DNA from: Escherichia coli
GTDB lineage: Bacteria > Pseudomonadota > Gammaproteobacteria > Enterobacterales > Enterobacteriaceae
DNA length: 64,000 nucleotides
NCBI RefSeq assembly: GCF_050920415.1
Contig: NZ_CP169309.1
Reading direction: 5' to 3' (one strand)
The notes under the pieces are model-generated. The model was not told the origin of the DNA. It worked only from the letters and a program-made list of their open reading frames with translations, and made no database searches. Shown piece by piece: positions 5,663-50,691 of the stretch. Position 1 is the stretch's first letter. Every line of letters starts with the position of its first letter. The position numbers and the translations under genes are program-made.

Positions 5663-6376
5663 ATGAAGATTTTTTTGGAGAATCTTTATCATTCTGATTG
5701 CTATTTCCTGCCGATAAGAGATAACCAGCAAAACCTTGTCGGCGTTGAGTTAATTACCCATTTCTCCAGTGAAGATGGTACGGTTCGTATACCGACGAGT
5801 CGGGTTATAGCGCAACTTACCGAGGAGCAACATTGGCAATTATTTTCTGAGCAGTTGGAATTGCTAAAATCATGCCAACACTTTTTTATTCAACATAAAC
5901 TCTTTGCCTGGCTTAATTTAACCCCACAAGTGGCTACTTTATTATTAGACAGGGATAATTACGCGGGCGAACTATTAAAATATCCGTTTATTGAACTGTT
6001 GATTAATGAGAATTACCCGCATCTCGATGAAGGAAAAGATAATCGCGATCTTTTGTCCTTATCGCAAATGTATCCCCTTGTGTTAGGTAATTTGGGCGCA
6101 GGCAATAGCACAATGAAAGCGGTTTTTGATGGTCTTTTCACCCGCGTCATGCTGGATAAAAGTTTTATTCAGCAACAAATCACGCATCGCTCCTTCGAAC
6201 CGTTTATTCGTGCGATCCAGGCGCAAATTTCCCCATGTTGCAATTGCATCATCGCGGGGGGCATTGATACGCCAGAAATAATGGCACAGATTACCCCCTT
6301 TGATTTCCATGCTCTCCAGGGATGCCTGTGGCCTGCCGTTCCTGTAAATCAGATAACGACGTTGGTTCAGCGATAA
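5663..6376 (+). CDS. ydiV: Degenerate EAL-domain protein, anti-FlhD4C2 factor
   Basis: 237 aa, N-terminus MKIFLENLYHSDCYFLPIRDNQQ matches YdiV; the EAL motif position reads ELI. Confidence 0.9.
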   Translation: MKIFLENLYHSDCYFLPIRDNQQNLVGVELITHFSSEDGTVRIPTSRVIAQLTEEQHWQLFSEQLELLKSCQHFFIQHKLFAWLNLTPQVATLLLDRDNYAGELLKYPFIELLINENYPHLDEGKDNRDLLSLSQMYPLVLGNLGAGNSTMKAVFDGLFTRVMLDKSFIQQQITHRSFEPFIRAIQAQISPCCNCIIAGGIDTPEIMAQITPFDFHALQGCLWPAVPVNQITTLVQR

Positions 6377-8070: not shown

Positions 8071-8201
8071 AAAAATTAATAATAATTGATATAACAATGA
8101 TTCTTATTATCAATATTCTGGCGGGCCAGAGCAAGCAGTAATTTGTTGAGAAGACAACAAGTTGCGCAGAAATGCCCATTCCGTCAGGAATGGGCACGCA
8201 T

Positions 8202-18380: not shown

Positions 18381-19292
18381 ATGTATCAACGCTGTTTTGA
18401 TAACGCCAGCGAAACGCTGTTTGTCGCCGGTAAAACGCCACGGCTTTCACGTTTTGCATTTAGCGATGATCCAAAATGGGAGTCCGGACATCACGTTCAT
18501 GACAATGAAACCGAGTTGATTTACGTCAAGAAAGGGGTAGCAAGGTTTACCATCGATTCTTCGTTATATGTCGCGCATGCCGATGACATTGTGGTGATAG
18601 AACGTGGCAGGTTGCATGCGGTGGCCTCTGACGTTAACGATCCAGCAACGACGTGTACCTGTGCGCTGTACGGCTTTCAGTTTCAGGGGACTGAGGAAAA
18701 TCAGCTACTGCAACCGCATTCTTGCCCGGTCATTGCCGCAGGGCAGGGAAAAGAAGTCATTAAAACCTTATTTAATGAGCTAAGTGTGATTTTGCCGCAA
18801 AGTAAAAATAGCCAAACATCTTCGTTATGGGACGCATTTGCCTATACGTTAGTAATTCTTTACTACGAAAACTTTAAAAATGCTTATCGTTCGGAGCAGG
18901 GATATATTAAAAAAGATGTTCTGATAAAAGATATTCTTTTCTATCTGAATAATAATTATCGCGAAAAAATCACTTTAGAGCAGTTATCGAAAAAATTTCG
19001 TGCCAGCGTCAGTTATATCTGCCATGAATTTACCAAAGAGTATCGTATTTCCCCTATTAACTATGTTATTCAACGGCGTATGACGGAAGCGAAATGGTCA
19101 CTCACTAATACTGAATTATCACAGGCAGAGATCTCCTGGCGTGTGGGTTATGAAAATGTCGATCACTTTGCCAAACTGTTTTTGCGCCATGTCGGCTGTT
19201 CGCCCAGCGATTACCGCAGGCAATTTAAAAACTGTTTTGCGGAACAAGAAATCTTATCTGAATTTCCTCAACCGGTAAGTCTTGCCGGATAA
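18381..19292 (+). CDS. ydiP: AraC/XylS family transcriptional regulator
   Basis: 303 aa, cupin-like N-terminus and C-terminal AraC-type HTH region. Confidence 0.9.
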   Translation: MYQRCFDNASETLFVAGKTPRLSRFAFSDDPKWESGHHVHDNETELIYVKKGVARFTIDSSLYVAHADDIVVIERGRLHAVASDVNDPATTCTCALYGFQFQGTEENQLLQPHSCPVIAAGQGKEVIKTLFNELSVILPQSKNSQTSSLWDAFAYTLVILYYENFKNAYRSEQGYIKKDVLIKDILFYLNNNYREKITLEQLSKKFRASVSYICHEFTKEYRISPINYVIQRRMTEAKWSLTNTELSQAEISWRVGYENVDHFAKLFLRHVGCSPSDYRRQFKNCFAEQEILSEFPQPVSLAG

Positions 19293-31900: not shown

Positions 31901-32055
31901 TCGGGATCTATGAGTTATCCTGGCATCAGGCGATGCAGCGACTGCCGCGTAATCGCTGTCTGGCGACCGGATATTCCTGTCGCAGCCAGGTAAAACGGGT
32001 TGAAGGCACGGGGGTACGCCATCCTGTGCAGGCTTTACTGGAGATTATTAAATGA
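28999..32055 (+). CDS. ydiJ: FAD-linked oxidoreductase with C-terminal Fe-S/CCG domains (D-2-hydroxyglutarate dehydrogenase, YdiJ)
   Basis: 1018 aa; FAD-binding PCMH-type region near N-terminus, Cys motifs (CLACKACSTQCP) mid-protein; stop overlaps menI start. Confidence 0.93.
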   Translation: MIPQISQAPGVVQLVLNFLQELEQQGFTGDTATSYADRLTMSTDNSIYQLLPDAVVFPRSTADVALIARLAAQERYSSLIFTPRGGGTGTNGQALNQGIIVDMSRHMNRIIEINPEEGWVRVEAGVIKDQLNQYLKPFGYFFAPELSTSNRATLGGMINTDASGQGSLVYGKTSDHVLGVRAVLLGGDILDTQPLPVELAETLGKSNTTIGRIYNTVYQRCRQQRQLIIDKFPKLNRFLTGYDLRHVFNDEMTEFDLTRILTGSEGTLAFITEARLDITPLPKVRRLVNVKYDSFDSALRNAPFMVEARALSVETVDSKVLNLAREDIVWHSVSELITDVPDKEMLGLNIVEFAGDDETLIDERVNALCARLDELIASQQAGVIGWQVCRELAGVERIYAMRKKAVGLLGNAKGAAKPIPFAEDTCVPPEHLADYIAEFRALLDSHGLSYGMFGHVDAGVLHVRPALDMCDPQQEILMKQISDDVVALTAKYGGLLWGEHGKGFRAEYSPAFFGEELFAELRKVKAAFDPHNRLNPGKICPPEGLDAPMMKVDAVKRGTYDRQIPIAVRQQWRGAMECNGNGLCFNFDARSPMCPSMKITQNRIHSPKGRATLVREWLRLLADRGIDPLKLEQELPESGVSLRTLIARTRNSWHANKGEYDFSHEVKEAMSGCLACKACSTQCPIKIDVPEFRSRFLQLYHTRYLRPLRDHLVATVESYAPLMARAPKTFNFFINQPLVRKLSEKHIGMVDLPLLSVPSLQQQMVGHRSANMTLEQLEVLNAEQKSRTVLVVQDPFTSYYDAQVVADFVRLVEKLGFQPVLLPFSPNGKAQHIKGFLNRFAKTAKKTADFLNRMAKLGMPMVGVDPALVLCYRDEYKLALGEERGEFKVLLANEWLASILESQPVATVSGESWYFFGHCTEVTALPGAPAQWAAIFARFGAKLENVSVGCCGMAGTYGHEAKNHKNSLGIYELSWHQAMQRLPRNRCLATGYSCRSQVKRVEGTGVRHPVQALLEIIK

Positions 32056-32462
32056 TATGGAAACGAAAAATCACCCTGGAAGCACTGAATGCAATGGGTG
32101 AAGGAAACATGGTGGGGTTGCTGGATATTCGCTTTGAACATATTAGTGATGACACCCTTGAAGCGACAATGCCAGTAGACTCGCGGACAAAGCAGCCTTT
32201 CGGGTTGCTGCATGGAGGGGCATCCGTGGTACTGGCCGAAAGTATCGGTTCCGTTGCCGGTTATTTATGTACCGAAGGTGAGCAAAAGGTGGTTGGTCTG
32301 GAAATCAATGCTAACCACGTCCGCTCGGTACGAGAAGGGCGGGTGCGCGGCGTATGCAAACCGTTGCATCTCGGTTCGCGTCACCAGGTCTGGCAGATTG
32401 AAATCTTCGATGAGAAAGGGCGTTTGTGCTGTTCGTCACGATTGACGACCGCTATTTTGTGA
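32052..32462 (+). CDS. menI: 1,4-dihydroxy-2-naphthoyl-CoA hydrolase (hotdog-fold thioesterase)
   Basis: 136 aa, N-terminus MIWKRKITLEALNAMGEGNMVG matches YdiI/MenI; ATGA overlap with ydiJ. Confidence 0.92.
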   Translation: MIWKRKITLEALNAMGEGNMVGLLDIRFEHISDDTLEATMPVDSRTKQPFGLLHGGASVVLAESIGSVAGYLCTEGEQKVVGLEINANHVRSVREGRVRGVCKPLHLGSRHQVWQIEIFDEKGRLCCSSRLTTAIL

Positions 32463-32561
32463 CGTTGTCACCAGAAAAGTGTGACGCATATTGCTTTTGG
32501 TCATTATCTGCACAGTAAACGGTGGTATACTGTGCAGGTCTTGTCTAAAAGCGAGGATGCT

Positions 32562-32750
32562 ATGTCTACTCAACTTGATCCCACCCAGCTGGCCATTGAA
32601 TTTTTACGTCGTGACCAGAGCAATCTTTCACCTGCCCAATATCTCAAACGTCTGAAACAACTAGAACTTGAATTCGCTGACTTGCTTACTCTCTCTTCTG
32701 CTGAATTAAAAGAAGAAATCTACTTTGCCTGGCGTTTGGGCGTGCATTGA
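32562..32750 (+). CDS. ydiH: Small protein YdiH
   Basis: 62 aa from ATG at 32562 (MSTQLDPTQLAIEFL); the ORF-track 5' extension is rejected. Confidence 0.7.
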   Translation: MSTQLDPTQLAIEFLRRDQSNLSPAQYLKRLKQLELEFADLLTLSSAELKEEIYFAWRLGVH

Positions 32751-32949
32751 TCCTGACGTAATGCCGCGAGTTCGCCAAATCGGCCTGGATTAATCTTCGT
32801 CCAGGTTCGAGGGCCTTCTTAATACTGCTTTTCTACCCGCCTGATAACGTTCAAAAATAATACAAATCGCAGTTTGTGCTAAAACAGCGGCTTAGCTTTA
32901 TGAGACTATTCTTATCGCCCCTTCAAGAGCTAAGCCACTGTGAGTGCCG

Positions 32950-33017
32950 GAGATAAGCGCCGGATGGGGTAGAAACCCTTAAGCCTGTGATGCACAGACT
33001 TAAGGGTTTTCTTATTT
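32950..33017 (+). ncRNA. rydB: Candidate RydB sRNA (boundaries approximate)
   Basis: Strong hairpin aacccttaagcctgtg...cacagacttaagggtt plus T-tract in the ydiH-sufA spacer, where rydB is expected; the RydB sequence itself was not recalled. Confidence 0.4.
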
Positions 33018-33103
33018 CTGAACGCTGCACTTTTTTACCTATCTCTTAAATAGTCATTTTCAATACAACTTTTTCTTTTTCATCTCAGCCTTAATGCTCC
33101 TTA

Positions 33104-33119
33104 GATAATAATCATTATC
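33104..33119 (+). promoter_or_regulatory. Distal Fur-box-like palindrome upstream of sufA
   Basis: gataataatcattatc, a near-perfect GATAAT/ATTATC inverted repeat about 180 bp upstream of the sufA ATG. Confidence 0.45.
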
Positions 33120-33233
33120 TAACAATGAGATACCTAATTCTTAGCGTGCCTGTTAACCCACACATCAGGGTCTATGCTTATTAAAAGCAGGCAAAAAGCA
33201 TGTTTTACGGTAAAGCCCCTGCGTTTGCTGGGT

Positions 33234-33252
33234 TGAACTGATAATCATTATC
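33234..33252 (+). promoter_or_regulatory. Fur box in the sufA promoter
   Basis: gaactgataatcattatca matches the Fur consensus (GATAATGATAATCATTATC), about 50 bp upstream of the sufA ATG. Confidence 0.7.
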
Positions 33253-33298
33253 ACTAACATGCTGTTATACGCTGAAAGCGATGAAGTGAGGTAAATCG

Positions 33299-33667
33299 AT
33301 GGACATGCATTCAGGAACCTTTAATCCACAGGATTTCGCCTGGCAGGGCTTAACGCTGACACCCGCAGCCGCTGTCCACATCCGTGAGCTGGTGGCAAAG
33401 CAACCAGGTATGGTCGGCGTGCGCTTAGGCGTGAAGCAAACGGGCTGCGCGGGATTTGGCTATGTGCTCGACAGTGTTAGCGAGCCAGACAAAGACGATC
33501 TGCTGTTTGAACATGACGGCGCGAAGCTGTTTGTCCCGCTGCAAGCGATGCCGTTTATTGATGGCACGGAAGTCGATTTCGTTCGTGAAGGACTTAATCA
33601 GATATTCAAATTTCACAACCCGAAAGCCCAGAATGAATGTGGCTGTGGCGAAAGCTTTGGGGTATAG
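33299..33667 (+). CDS. sufA: Fe-S cluster assembly A-type carrier
   Basis: 122 aa, N-terminus [22 protein letters not shown]-terminal CGCGESF motif. Confidence 0.95.
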
Positions 33668-33675
33668 GCGGTACT

Positions 33676-35163
33676 ATGTCTCGTAATACTGAAGCAACTG
33701 ACGATGTCAAAACCTGGACCGGCGGCCCGCTGAATTATAAAGAAGGATTCTTCACCCAGTTAGCCACTGATGAGCTGGCAAAGGGGATAAACGAAGAGGT
33801 GGTGCGCGCAATATCGGCGAAGCGTAATGAGCCGGAGTGGATGCTGGAGTTTCGTCTCAAAGCTTATCGCGCATGGCTGGAGATGGAAGAGCCGCACTGG
33901 CTGAAAGCGCACTACGACAAGCTGAATTATCAGGAATACAGCTACTACTCAGCACCATCGTGCGGTAATTGTGACGACACTTGCGCGTCGGAACCCGGCG
34001 CGGTGCAGCAAACTGGCGCGAACTCCTTTTTAAGTAAAGAGGTGGAGGCGGCGTTTGAGCAGTTGGGCGTTCCCGTACGGGAAGGCAAAGAAGTGGCAGT
34101 GGATGCCATTTTCGACTCTGTTTCGGTTGCCACCACTTATCGTGAAAAACTGGCGGAGCAGGGAATTATTTTCTGTTCCTTTGGCGAGGCGATCCACGAT
34201 CACCCGGAACTGGTGCGGAAATATCTCGGCACCGTGGTGCCGGGGAATGACAACTTCTTTGCCGCGCTTAATGCGGCGGTGGCCTCTGACGGTACATTTA
34301 TTTATGTGCCTAAAGGCGTGCGCTGCCCGATGGAACTCTCCACCTATTTTCGCATTAACGCGGAAAAAACCGGACAGTTTGAGCGCACCATTCTGGTGGC
34401 CGACGAAGACAGCTACGTCAGCTACATTGAAGGCTGTTCCGCTCCGGTGCGTGACAGCTATCAGTTACACGCGGCGGTGGTGGAAGTCATCATCCATAAA
34501 AACGCCGAGGTGAAATATTCCACGGTACAAAACTGGTTCCCTGGCGATAACAACACCGGCGGTATTCTCAATTTCGTCACCAAGCGTGCTTTGTGCGAAG
34601 GCGAAAACAGCAAAATGTCATGGACGCAATCAGAAACCGGGTCAGCGATTACGTGGAAATATCCCAGCTGCATTTTGCGCGGCGATAACTCCATTGGTGA
34701 GTTTTACTCGGTGGCACTGACCAGCGGTCATCAGCAAGCGGATACCGGCACCAAGATGATCCACATCGGTAAAAACACCAAATCGACCATTATCTCGAAA
34801 GGGATCTCTGCCGGACACAGCCAGAACAGTTATCGCGGCTTAGTGAAAATCATGCCGACGGCAACCAATGCACGTAACTTCACCCAGTGCGACTCAATGC
34901 TGATAGGCGCTAATTGTGGGGCGCATACTTTCCCGTATGTCGAATGTCGCAATAACAGCGCGCAACTGGAGCACGAGGCAACGACATCACGTATTGGTGA
35001 AGATCAACTGTTTTACTGCCTGCAACGCGGGATCAGCGAAGAAGACGCCATCTCGATGATTGTTAACGGTTTCTGCAAAGACGTGTTCTCAGAACTGCCG
35101 CTGGAATTTGCCGTTGAAGCACAAAAACTCCTCGCCATCAGTCTTGAACACAGCGTCGGATAA
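33676..35163 (+). CDS. sufB: Fe-S cluster assembly scaffold SufB
   Basis: 495 aa from ATG 33676 ([10 protein letters not shown]); the ORF-track 13-codon extension is rejected. Confidence 0.95.
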
Positions 35164-42752: not shown

Positions 42753-42992
42753 CCATTCAGGATGAGGCGGTAAGCTTCATCCTGATATTCTTAGTTCAGT
42801 TGCAGTCCAGTTAATCATTCTAAATAACAACTGCTGAAATTATACAAATTTCGGTATGTATTTTAATTTATAGCGCTAATGTTATTTTTATTTTCTGTAA
42901 TAAAAGTCACAAATAATTGTCGCTTAAGTTAAATTTATTTTAAATGATAATAAATATCAGTTCACTTATAATTTCTTGCTTTGTGATTTTAA

Positions 42993-43006
42993 TTGATAAC
43001 GATCAA
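42993..43006 (+). promoter_or_regulatory. FNR box upstream of the ydhY operon
   Basis: ttgataacgatcaa is a perfect match to the FNR consensus TTGAT-N4-ATCAA, in the AT-rich spacer about 200 bp upstream of the ydhY ATG. Confidence 0.7.
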
Positions 43007-43207
43007 TGTTAAGAGCTCAGAATAATCACATTATTTTTCCTCCTAACCATAAAGGATTAGTTTATCAGCGTTAAATCTTTTCTCATACACTATCGGGTTA
43101 GGGAAAATATCTGGTGTTGGGGACAGAGTCAGCAGCGTATTAGTTGAATGCTTAATATCAGGCTGCTGAATTGTCAGCACTGTGTTTGCGAAGAGGATGC
43201 GAAATAA

Positions 43208-48955: not shown

Positions 48956-50566
48956 TTACATTTGATCAAACGAAAGACGCCGACGAGCACGGGATGCAGG
49001 CTTTACGACCGCCTGAGCCATCGCCTCACCAATTTCTGCACATGCCGTAAGTCCCTGTACGAATGGCCGGTCGTGCATCAACCAGGGCAACGCGCCGAAC
49101 GCTACGCGCCCACGAATTTCTTCGGGTTGCTGTAGCGTATAATCTTCGCCAACATCAGGGATTTCATCCCCTGTTTTCTGTAATTGTTCGCGTAGTCCAG
49201 GGAAAGGAATATCTTTCACTTTAAGCGGACGCTGCCCGCGGGCATCAATAAAAACGTCAAACGAGTAGCTATCGTCTTCCGTTTTCAGGACGGTGCGCGA
49301 CTCATTAATTTCCATTTCGTAGTCTTCACCGAGGGCGAGAATATGAATGATTCCCGCTTCACGTAAGGCCAGTAGTCGACGAATAGACTCTGAAGGGATT
49401 GCCGCATAATTATCGATGAAAACCCGGGCAAGGCCTTTACTGAACCGTTTATGGTCGTGTTCATTCAGATGAGGAACAATTTCCTGTACGGCTTCATGCA
49501 GGCGCAGAATGACATAACGCCAGGGAACAGTATGTTTTTCTCGTTTATTGCGTTCGACTTCCTGGAGATTTTTTTCTGCCCAGTCGAATGGGTCGCGTTG
49601 TTTGCGCTCGGCAAACCAGGCTTGAGCAAAGGAATCGACATTCAGGCTCTCTAAGGCTATGCGTTGGCTCCAGTCTGGATCAGCAAATTTGATTTCCTCT
49701 ACTATTAATTCGAATACTCGATCCAAAAGGCCCTCTTCGCCTTTTTGAATCTCCGCATTTAATGCCTGTTCAGTGACGATGTGTAAGGGCTCGTAGGGAA
49801 TAGGGCAATAGAAATCGGCTTCGGGTAAAATACCCGTGCGCGACATCAACGTAATATTTAGCTTTTCACTTGCGTTATCGCGGTGAAAAACGACGTGTTG
49901 TTTATCATCTTCAATGAACGAACCATGCTGAATAGCCACTGCCATTGCCGCATCCAGTCCGCTCAAGGATGTTCCCATAATACCCACGTTACACGCATCG
50001 ACCTTTGCTTCCATCAGGCCTGACCACGGGCTGGGAAAATACGTTCTGGTTGCTTCTTCTTCATCAGGCCAGACGTGACCCGTCGCGATCACCGCTAAAT
50101 CAAACGTCTCGCTGGGTAAATCCTGATTTGTAGCGAGCATGACGCCAGCATTTATAATTTGCAGATCGGTAACCTGGCATGATTCATAAACAGCCACTGC
50201 AAATTTTTGCTGTCGTGCCTGGTCTACTAATCGTAAAAATTGATCGCGGAAATATTCGCCCAGCAGAATTCGCGGTAAAAACTGGCGATCGTGCAAGGTT
50301 TCTTTTTTAACGCCATAACGCTGGAGATGGCTGGCTTCTTGCTTTTGTAGCCATTCGAGATACGTACAATAAATCGGCGGTATTTCAATACTGGCAATAT
50401 TTGCCAGCATCAGTTTTGAGTTTTCCTCATCACTGTATGGCATCCCGACACCGGCTTCGTCAGCCTGCTCGAAGATAGAAATAGAAAGTGGAGTTTGTTG
50501 CTGTAGAAGCGAGAATAAGGTGTAGATCCCCGTAGGCCCGGCACCCACAATAGCAATTTTTTTCAT
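48956..50566 (-). CDS. ydhS: FAD/NAD(P)-binding protein YdhS
   Basis: 536 aa, N-terminal Rossmann motif IAIVGAGPTG. Confidence 0.88.
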   Translation of the reverse strand: MKKIAIVGAGPTGIYTLFSLLQQQTPLSISIFEQADEAGVGMPYSDEENSKLMLANIASIEIPPIYCTYLEWLQKQEASHLQRYGVKKETLHDRQFLPRILLGEYFRDQFLRLVDQARQQKFAVAVYESCQVTDLQIINAGVMLATNQDLPSETFDLAVIATGHVWPDEEEATRTYFPSPWSGLMEAKVDACNVGIMGTSLSGLDAAMAVAIQHGSFIEDDKQHVVFHRDNASEKLNITLMSRTGILPEADFYCPIPYEPLHIVTEQALNAEIQKGEEGLLDRVFELIVEEIKFADPDWSQRIALESLNVDSFAQAWFAERKQRDPFDWAEKNLQEVERNKREKHTVPWRYVILRLHEAVQEIVPHLNEHDHKRFSKGLARVFIDNYAAIPSESIRRLLALREAGIIHILALGEDYEMEINESRTVLKTEDDSYSFDVFIDARGQRPLKVKDIPFPGLREQLQKTGDEIPDVGEDYTLQQPEEIRGRVAFGALPWLMHDRPFVQGLTACAEIGEAMAQAVVKPASRARRRLSFDQM

Positions 50567-50691
50567 TGTTACTTACCTGTACGCATTCTTTCGAATTTAG
50601 TGTTATCAGATAAGTTTGGTTGAAATTTTTAGAATTTGAGAAATTTCAGACAGGGATGAAAAGGGCGCTAACCGCCCTTGGTTAAAATCTG

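Follow-up and report, generated by a model that had tools for sequence, protein, structure and literature searches.

Gene Order and Conserved Elements Upstream of sufA

The window, i.e., the whole stretch of 64,000 nt that was analysed, is from Escherichia coli and carries on its plus strand, in this order, ydiJ, menI, ydiH, rydB, a hairpin terminator and sufABCDSE. The region 32760–33320 is 100% identical to strain MFDS1022581, and of the 5421 complete genomes in which it is present, most match it at 96–97% identity. The coding sequence of sufA, the first gene of sufABCDSE, occupies 33299–33667 on the plus strand with its ATG at 33299, according to both the open reading frame and the RefSeq annotation of the identical strain. 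The small RNA rydB, which is annotated in K-12, lies at 32917–32977 on the plus strand (Rfam RF00118, 83 bits, E=1e-19) and is followed by its terminator, a hairpin with a T-run (≈32975–33016, with ACCCTTAAGCCTGTG..CACAGACTTAAGGGTTTTCTT). Together, rydB and the hairpin are the upstream boundary of the sufA regulatory region. The rydB hairpin differs between the window and K-12 in the loop only (AT here, TC in K-12). Among Escherichia species both sides of the stem vary, e.g., in the locus L003, and the changes look compensatory.

Conservation of the region was analysed by a SufA-guided scan that gave 80 Enterobacteriaceae loci, an alignment of 14 representatives and a column profile over 74 non-Escherichia loci. 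Alignment and profile revealed five conserved blocks: the OxyR block (33038–33074), 33108–33133, 33165–33187, the IscR block, and a block comprising the -35 element, the Fur box and the -10 element. The OxyR element (ORE-I), with the sequence CCTATCTCTTAAATAGTCATTTTCAATACAACTTTTT, is 80–99% conserved across the 74 non-Escherichia loci, and its assignment follows PMC8300815. The IscR element (ORE-III; AAAGCCCCTGCGTTTGCTGGG, 33211–33232) is likewise a conserved block that can be assigned from the literature (PMC8300815; PMC4155840). The same reviews place IHF at ORE-II, between OxyR at ORE-I and IscR/Fur at ORE-III.

The most conserved stretch of the whole sufA upstream region is the block CAGGGTCTATGCTTATTAAAAGC at 33165–33187 (-102 to -80 from the sufA transcription start site, TSS), with 90–99% column conservation over the 74 loci and no variation in the alignment of 14 representatives. 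A small inverted repeat, GCTT-ATTAA-AAGC, lies within this block. The accessible accounts of sufA give it no OxyR, IHF, IscR or Fur assignment. It might be an NsrR site; RegulonDB-derived tables list NsrR as a suf regulator.

Core Promoter and Proximal Fur Operator

The sufA core promoter was read from the sequence at 33233–33260 on the plus strand, with the -35 element TTGAAC at 33233–33238 and the -10 element TAACAT at 33255–33260. In Table S6 of PMC10219339 the sufA Fur site is centred at -53 relative to the ATG and at -21 relative to the TSS, and from this placement we derived a TSS at 33267. The Fur operator spans 33237–33255, between the -35 and -10 elements, and its 7-1-7 core TGATAATCATTATCA at 33239–33253 has no mismatches to the consensus.

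Candidate Fur sites were scored with a symmetric 19-bp matrix built from 15 aligned K-12 operators, taken from NC_000913.3 at the coordinates of PMC2189734 Table 4. The scores agree within ≈2 bits with the values of PMC2189734 for sufA (19.0 bits here), ydhY (20.1 bits) and ydiE (18.6 bits). As only strong operators went into the matrix, it probably scores weak but real sites too low. The proximal box, 19.0 bits on this scale, is found ≈60 bp upstream of the ATG in nearly all of the 80 Enterobacteriaceae loci, and TGATAATCATTATCA is the known sufA Fur operator, overlapping the -35 and -10 elements. PMC2189734 Table 4 lists for sufA the Fur site at -53 alone, with 21.3 bits, 3 sites and 31 bp. 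Both K-12 Fur tables (PMC2189734 Table 4 and the accessible part of PMC10219339 Table S6) give only this -53 site, but Table 4 is confined to clusters above 17 bits and that part of Table S6 has a single sufA row, so that a weak second sufA site might go unlisted in either.

One locus, L058 from Intestinirhabdus alba, has a perfect Fur box at -158 from the sufA start defined by tblastn, ≈100 bp farther than at all other loci. From this distance, the start codon may be a different one, or the leader may carry an insertion.

The matrix also found the known Fur clusters of the window at coordinates that agree with PMC2189734 Table 4, namely 8075–8114 upstream of hemP/ydiE (12.3, 18.6, and 16.6 bits) and 42943–43010, ≈256 bp upstream of ydhY (20.1 and 9.9 bits). 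Further, unassigned matches lie at the very start of ydiV, which encodes an anti-FlhDC factor (5675–5693, 15.4 bits), inside ydiP (18873–18891, 14.3 bits) and across the ydhS start codon (50549–50567, 12.5 bits). A moderate match of 11.1 bits, TTAAATAGTCATTTTCAAT, lies inside the OxyR block at 33046–33064, so that here, too, the AT-rich site of another regulator looks like a Fur box.

Fur Likeness of the Distal Palindrome

The original prediction described two Fur-box-like palindromes upstream of the suf operon, one about 50 bp from sufA and a near-perfect second one about 130 bp further upstream. Both palindromes are present, with the proximal core at 33239–33253 and the distal palindrome, GATAATAATCATTATC, at 33104–33119 (-163 to -148 from the TSS). 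The distances agree as well: the proximal box, quoted as gaactgataatcattatca (33235–33253), is centred at 33246, 53 nt upstream of the sufA ATG, and the distal one, quoted as gataataatcattatc, is centred at 33113, which is 133 bp upstream of the proximal centre and ≈-154 from the TSS. The distal site is indeed near-perfect and Fur-like. Its 6-bp inverted arms GATAAT and ATTATC, which flank AATC, are perfect, and 12 of 14 positions agree when the sequence is read as a 7-1-7 Fur box (TAATAATcATTATCT). The core ATAATAATCATT is identical to that of the ryhB and fhuA operators. Such sequences are rare in the window, where GATAATNATTATC with at most one mismatch occurs four times against 0.16 times expected from shuffles; of the two matches beyond the sufA boxes, one belongs to the known ydhY Fur cluster.

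On the Fur matrix, the distal site reaches 12.8 bits and ranks seventh among all 19-mers of the window. A score of 12.8 bits is reached by 0.27% of the 35-nt blocks in the window and one of 10 bits, the genome-scan cut-off of Chen et al. (2007; PMC2189734), by 0.6%. In that study, all 13 tested sites of 12–26 bits were shifted with 150 nM Fur. The word "strong", as used in the original prediction, overstated the case, given that the site scores 6 bits less than the proximal box and less than every one of the 15 training operators (18–28 bits, leave-one-out). Partner sites at an offset of 6 bp are the mark of multi-dimer, high-affinity Fur operators (PMC2189734). The distal palindrome has one main Fur register at 33113 and a minor one of 6.7 bits at a 3-bp offset, and the matrix scan found no Fur-like partner at ±6 bp. 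To judge from its sequence, the distal site is plausible as a weak Fur binder, not as a strong one.

Two Fur-like sites in one regulatory region could in principle cooperate, with dimers at -154 and -21 forming a loop, or with Fur polymerising between them, and so tighten repression. The 11.1-bit match in the OxyR block and the Fur footprints of up to 103 bp on record would fit such an arrangement. Yet the spacing of 133 bp from centre to centre corresponds to 12.7 helical turns, which is out of phase for looping, and the matrix scan found no positive-scoring Fur site between the boxes (33134–33236) that could bridge them. Reported clusters have a spacing of 3 or 6 bp, with contiguous sites over at most ≈140 bp, and most genera lack the distal site yet have the proximal box. 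We therefore consider cooperation between the two boxes to be highly improbable.

The Palindrome Within the IHF Element

The original prediction also put the distal palindrome where OxyR, IHF and IscR sites are expected; it does lie in the part that holds the OxyR and IHF elements, and the comparison across genera locates it still more closely, inside the IHF element itself. The majority sequence of the conserved block 33108–33133, AAATcCATTATT-TATCAATGCATTG, is that of a canonical IHF site with AAATcCATTATT as the consensus of the arm. We assign the IHF site (ORE-II) to 33102–33136 on the plus strand, based on the cross-genus alignment for the position and on the literature for IHF binding (PMC8300815; PMC4155840). 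The site has the conserved OxyR block (33038–33074) upstream and the promoter (33233–33267) downstream. Lee et al. (2004) reportedly placed ORE-I (OxyR) at -236 to -196 and ORE-II at -156 to -126, while ORE-III (IscR) spans -56 to -35; ORE-II would then be 33111–33141 in the window, which fits the placement of our IHF site.

The E. coli IHF core TAACAATGAGATA at 33120–33132 aligns with WATCAANNNNTTR of the other genera, and for this reason the palindrome sits exactly at the position of the IHF upstream arm. This AT-rich 5' arm (33102–33119) holds the entire palindrome. Among 75 non-Escherichia loci, the aligned core matches WATCAANNNNTTR perfectly in 45 and with one mismatch in 23, i.e., with at most one mismatch in 68 of 75, while a perfect IHF core was seen in 0.6% of shuffled segments. 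The core lies at -179 to -182 from the sufA ATG in 65 of the 75 loci. The E. coli core matches at seven of the nine specified positions and has two mismatches. The sequence TAATAA at 33106–33111 lies at -14 to -9 from the core start, the same offset as the A-tract of lambda H'. A minus-strand IHF core, TATCTCATTGTTA, was considered as well, but the cross-genus alignment puts the conserved core on the plus strand.

The two arms of the palindrome differ in their conservation. The right arm TCATTATC is part of an xCATTATT segment that is conserved across genera, and column conservation is high at 33108–33133. GATAAT, the left arm, occurs in Escherichia alone and belongs to the spacer that separates the OxyR site from the IHF site, where conservation is low (30–60% at 33069–33107). 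No non-Escherichia locus has kept the GATAAT/ATTATC palindrome, and among the 80 loci a distal match of the 7-1-7 type was found in Escherichia only. In these alignments, the IHF core of Escherichia looks degraded and its upstream arm remodelled.

The palindrome could also serve another regulator or nucleoid protein, act as a -10-like element of an unannotated promoter, or reflect mere AT-richness. Such a role is improbable in our view, even if GATAAT and TATTAT resemble -10 hexamers and the left arm lies in a fast-evolving spacer. No sigma-70-like pair of -35 and -10 elements overlaps the distal palindrome on either strand, by which a promoter made of GATAAT or TATTAT was ruled out. Conservation of the right arm and of the core next to it is that of an IHF site. 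An RNA element at the palindrome was rejected too: the Rfam scan of 32000–34000 gave rydB as the sole significant match, which lies upstream, and no match overlapped the palindrome.

When the highest Fur score within each orthologous IHF site (n=75) is taken, the median is 2.7 bits and the 90th percentile 8.3 bits. At least 10 bits are reached in three of the 75 sites (L040, L082, and L051), each with a different Fur-like sequence in the IHF arm, and at least 12.8 bits in one (L051). Matches of at least 10 bits are about seven times richer in orthologous IHF sites than in generic sequence (3 of 75 against 0.6%). Fur likeness is in part a by-product of the IHF site. Yet just one of the 75 orthologous sites attains the 12.8 bits of E. 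coli, whose arm is unusually Fur-like and speaks to that extent against a reading of the palindrome as an IHF arm alone. The score of the E. coli T allele (see below) corresponds to the 98.7th percentile of the orthologous IHF sites and so stands at the top of the distribution, which keeps a weak Fur interaction under consideration.

In L051 (Enterobacteriaceae bacterium UBA5654), the IHF arm reads independently as a 16.1-bit Fur-like site, AATATTATTTATTATCAAT, at ≈-192 from the sufA ATG. This is the sole non-Escherichia locus whose Fur-like arm outscores that of E. coli.

Variation at the Palindrome Centre and a Possible Competition of Fur With IHF

The 282 bp from the rydB terminator to the sufA ATG differ at two positions between the window and K-12, and one of these, 33112, lies in the centre of the palindrome. 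The base is T in the window and in O157:H7, and C in K-12 (GATAATAACCATTATC). Alleles were counted with short-word searches in which a 28-mer seed was forced to include 33112. Among 5426 complete E. coli genomes we found T in 2140 (39%), C in 3267 (60%) and G in none; the G allele is known from one GTDB 'E. coli' representative (L003). The Fur-matrix score is 12.8 bits with T, 10.6 with C and 7.2 with G, so that the change from T to C costs 2.2 bits. As T at 33112 is common to E. albertii, E. whittamii and a cryptic clade, the sequences suggest that it is probably the ancestral allele. Across the Escherichia lineages, the distal site scores 7.2, 7.3, 9.3, 10.6, or 12.8 bits, a drift that speaks against selection for Fur binding.

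These data bear on the possibility that the palindrome is a secondary, single-dimer Fur operator of Escherichia, at which Fe-Fur competes with IHF when iron is plentiful. The bend would then be blocked and OxyR-dependent activation damped, in addition to occlusion at the proximal box, and the T/C variation would tune the effect between strains. Several features agree with this. The scores of both common alleles lie above the 10-bit cut-off, sites of at least 12 bits bound Fur in gel shifts (PMC2189734), and the core is the same as in the ryhB and fhuA operators. As the site is wholly inside the IHF site, binding would be mutually exclusive. Its score is high for an orthologous IHF site (98.7th percentile), and the better Fur match (T) is probably the ancestral one. 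Against it stand the lack of conservation outside Escherichia, the 7.2–9.3 bits in three Escherichia lineages and the majority allele of E. coli, C, which weakens the site. The site is also without a 6-bp partner, and single-dimer sites of the F-F type are weak, with a Kd of ≈250 nM (PMC2189734 Table 1). Moreover, 83% of Fur clusters overlap promoters and upstream action of Fur in E. coli has been argued against (PMC2189734), and the sufA descriptions in the accessible parts of PMC8300815 and PMC10219339 have one Fur box. Overall, we regard such a competition as unlikely. Its fuller form would have the IHF arm evolve in Escherichia into a single-dimer Fur operator, with Fe-Fur and IHF competing for the same 35 bp, OxyR-driven suf induction becoming conditional on iron, and T/C at 33112 as a natural variant worth ≈2 bits of Fur affinity; this we find rather doubtful.

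Comparison With Known Systems

The closest known system is the sufA ORE-II/IHF site itself (Lee, Yeo & Roe, 2004, Mol Microbiol 51:1745; cited in PMC8300815 and PMC4155840), at the same locus and the same position. Both reviews cite Lee et al. (2004) for IHF binding and IHF-dependent activation at E. coli ORE-II. This IHF-binding element, between the OxyR site and the promoter, includes the palindrome's right arm together with the core next to it. The accessible accounts are silent on a Fur-like upstream arm and on a polymorphic central base.

Another likeness is seen with the H' site of lambda attP (AAAAAAGCATTGCTTATCAATTTGTTG), in which an A/T tract 9–14 bp 5' of the core is followed by xCATTxxT and then by WATCAANNNNTTR. 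Its layout, AAAAAAGCATTGCT-TATCAATTTGTTG, matches the sufA family consensus AAATcCATTATT-TATCAATGCATTG, and the right arm TCATTATC of the palindrome, which separates the A/T tract from the IHF core, has its counterpart in GCATTGCT of lambda H'. The natural lambda H' sequence was confirmed in lambdoid phages. The structure of IHF on lambda attP H' was reportedly described by Rice et al. in 1996. Unlike lambda H', E. coli sufA has a core (TAACAATGAGATA) with two mismatches, and its arm is the GATAAT/ATTATC palindrome instead of an A-tract. With the Fur matrix, lambda H' reaches only 1.4 bits.

With the classical Fur box (19-bp GATAATGATAATCATTATC; 7-1-7, Baichoo & Helmann, 2002; M9 model, PMC2189734) the distal site shares 12 of 14 positions and scores 12.8 bits on the M9-like matrix. 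It differs in that it is located far 5' of the promoter (-154), is single and not conserved, and has a polymorphic informative base. Overlapping Fur, ArcA, and IHF sites at the E. coli sodA promoter are said to have been described by Compan and Touati in 1993 (J Bacteriol). The sodA case is a precedent for overlapping AT-rich DNA being recognised by Fur and IHF in one oxidative-stress promoter. There, however, the overlap is at the core promoter and Fur binding is established, whereas at sufA it is far upstream and involves a candidate site only.

Role of the Distal Palindrome

The distal palindrome is probably the 5' AT-rich arm of the sufA IHF site, with a lineage-specific likeness to a Fur box and within an ordinary promoter architecture. 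IHF bound at ≈33102–33136 would bend the DNA, and the bend may let OxyR, ≈60–80 bp further upstream at 33038–33074, reach RNA polymerase at the promoter. Fur would repress through the single proximal operator that overlaps the -35 and -10 elements. The left arm GATAAT may be an Escherichia-specific AT-rich replacement that by chance completed a Fur-like inverted repeat, and we infer that the Fur likeness matters little or not at all for regulation.

Some observations pull against the palindrome being an IHF arm and nothing else. The T allele scores above the 10-bit cut-off of PMC2189734, in the 12–26-bit range where all tested sites were shifted, and the core ATAATAATCATT is that of real Fur operators (ryhB and fhuA). 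The E. coli IHF core has two mismatches. On the other side, the contribution to repression or to cooperative Fur binding that had been proposed for the distal site is not supported by a site that is restricted to Escherichia, polymorphic (T/C), out of phase with the proximal box and without a 6-bp partner or an overlapping promoter.

The regulatory architecture of sufA has been known for a long time, and the element that contains the palindrome is part of it. What is new is confined to three details: the IHF arm can be read as Fur-like, this likeness is limited to Escherichia, and the T/C polymorphism is common. Should the palindrome act as a Fur operator after all, this would mean an iron-gated antagonism of IHF and a regulatory polymorphism at the strain level, a modest refinement and not a new principle. 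If it is an ordinary IHF arm, the textbook order of sufA, with OxyR, IHF, and IscR/Fur at the promoter, stands unchanged, and the distal "Fur box" is a reminder that motif scans may take the AT-rich arms of IHF sites for Fur boxes.
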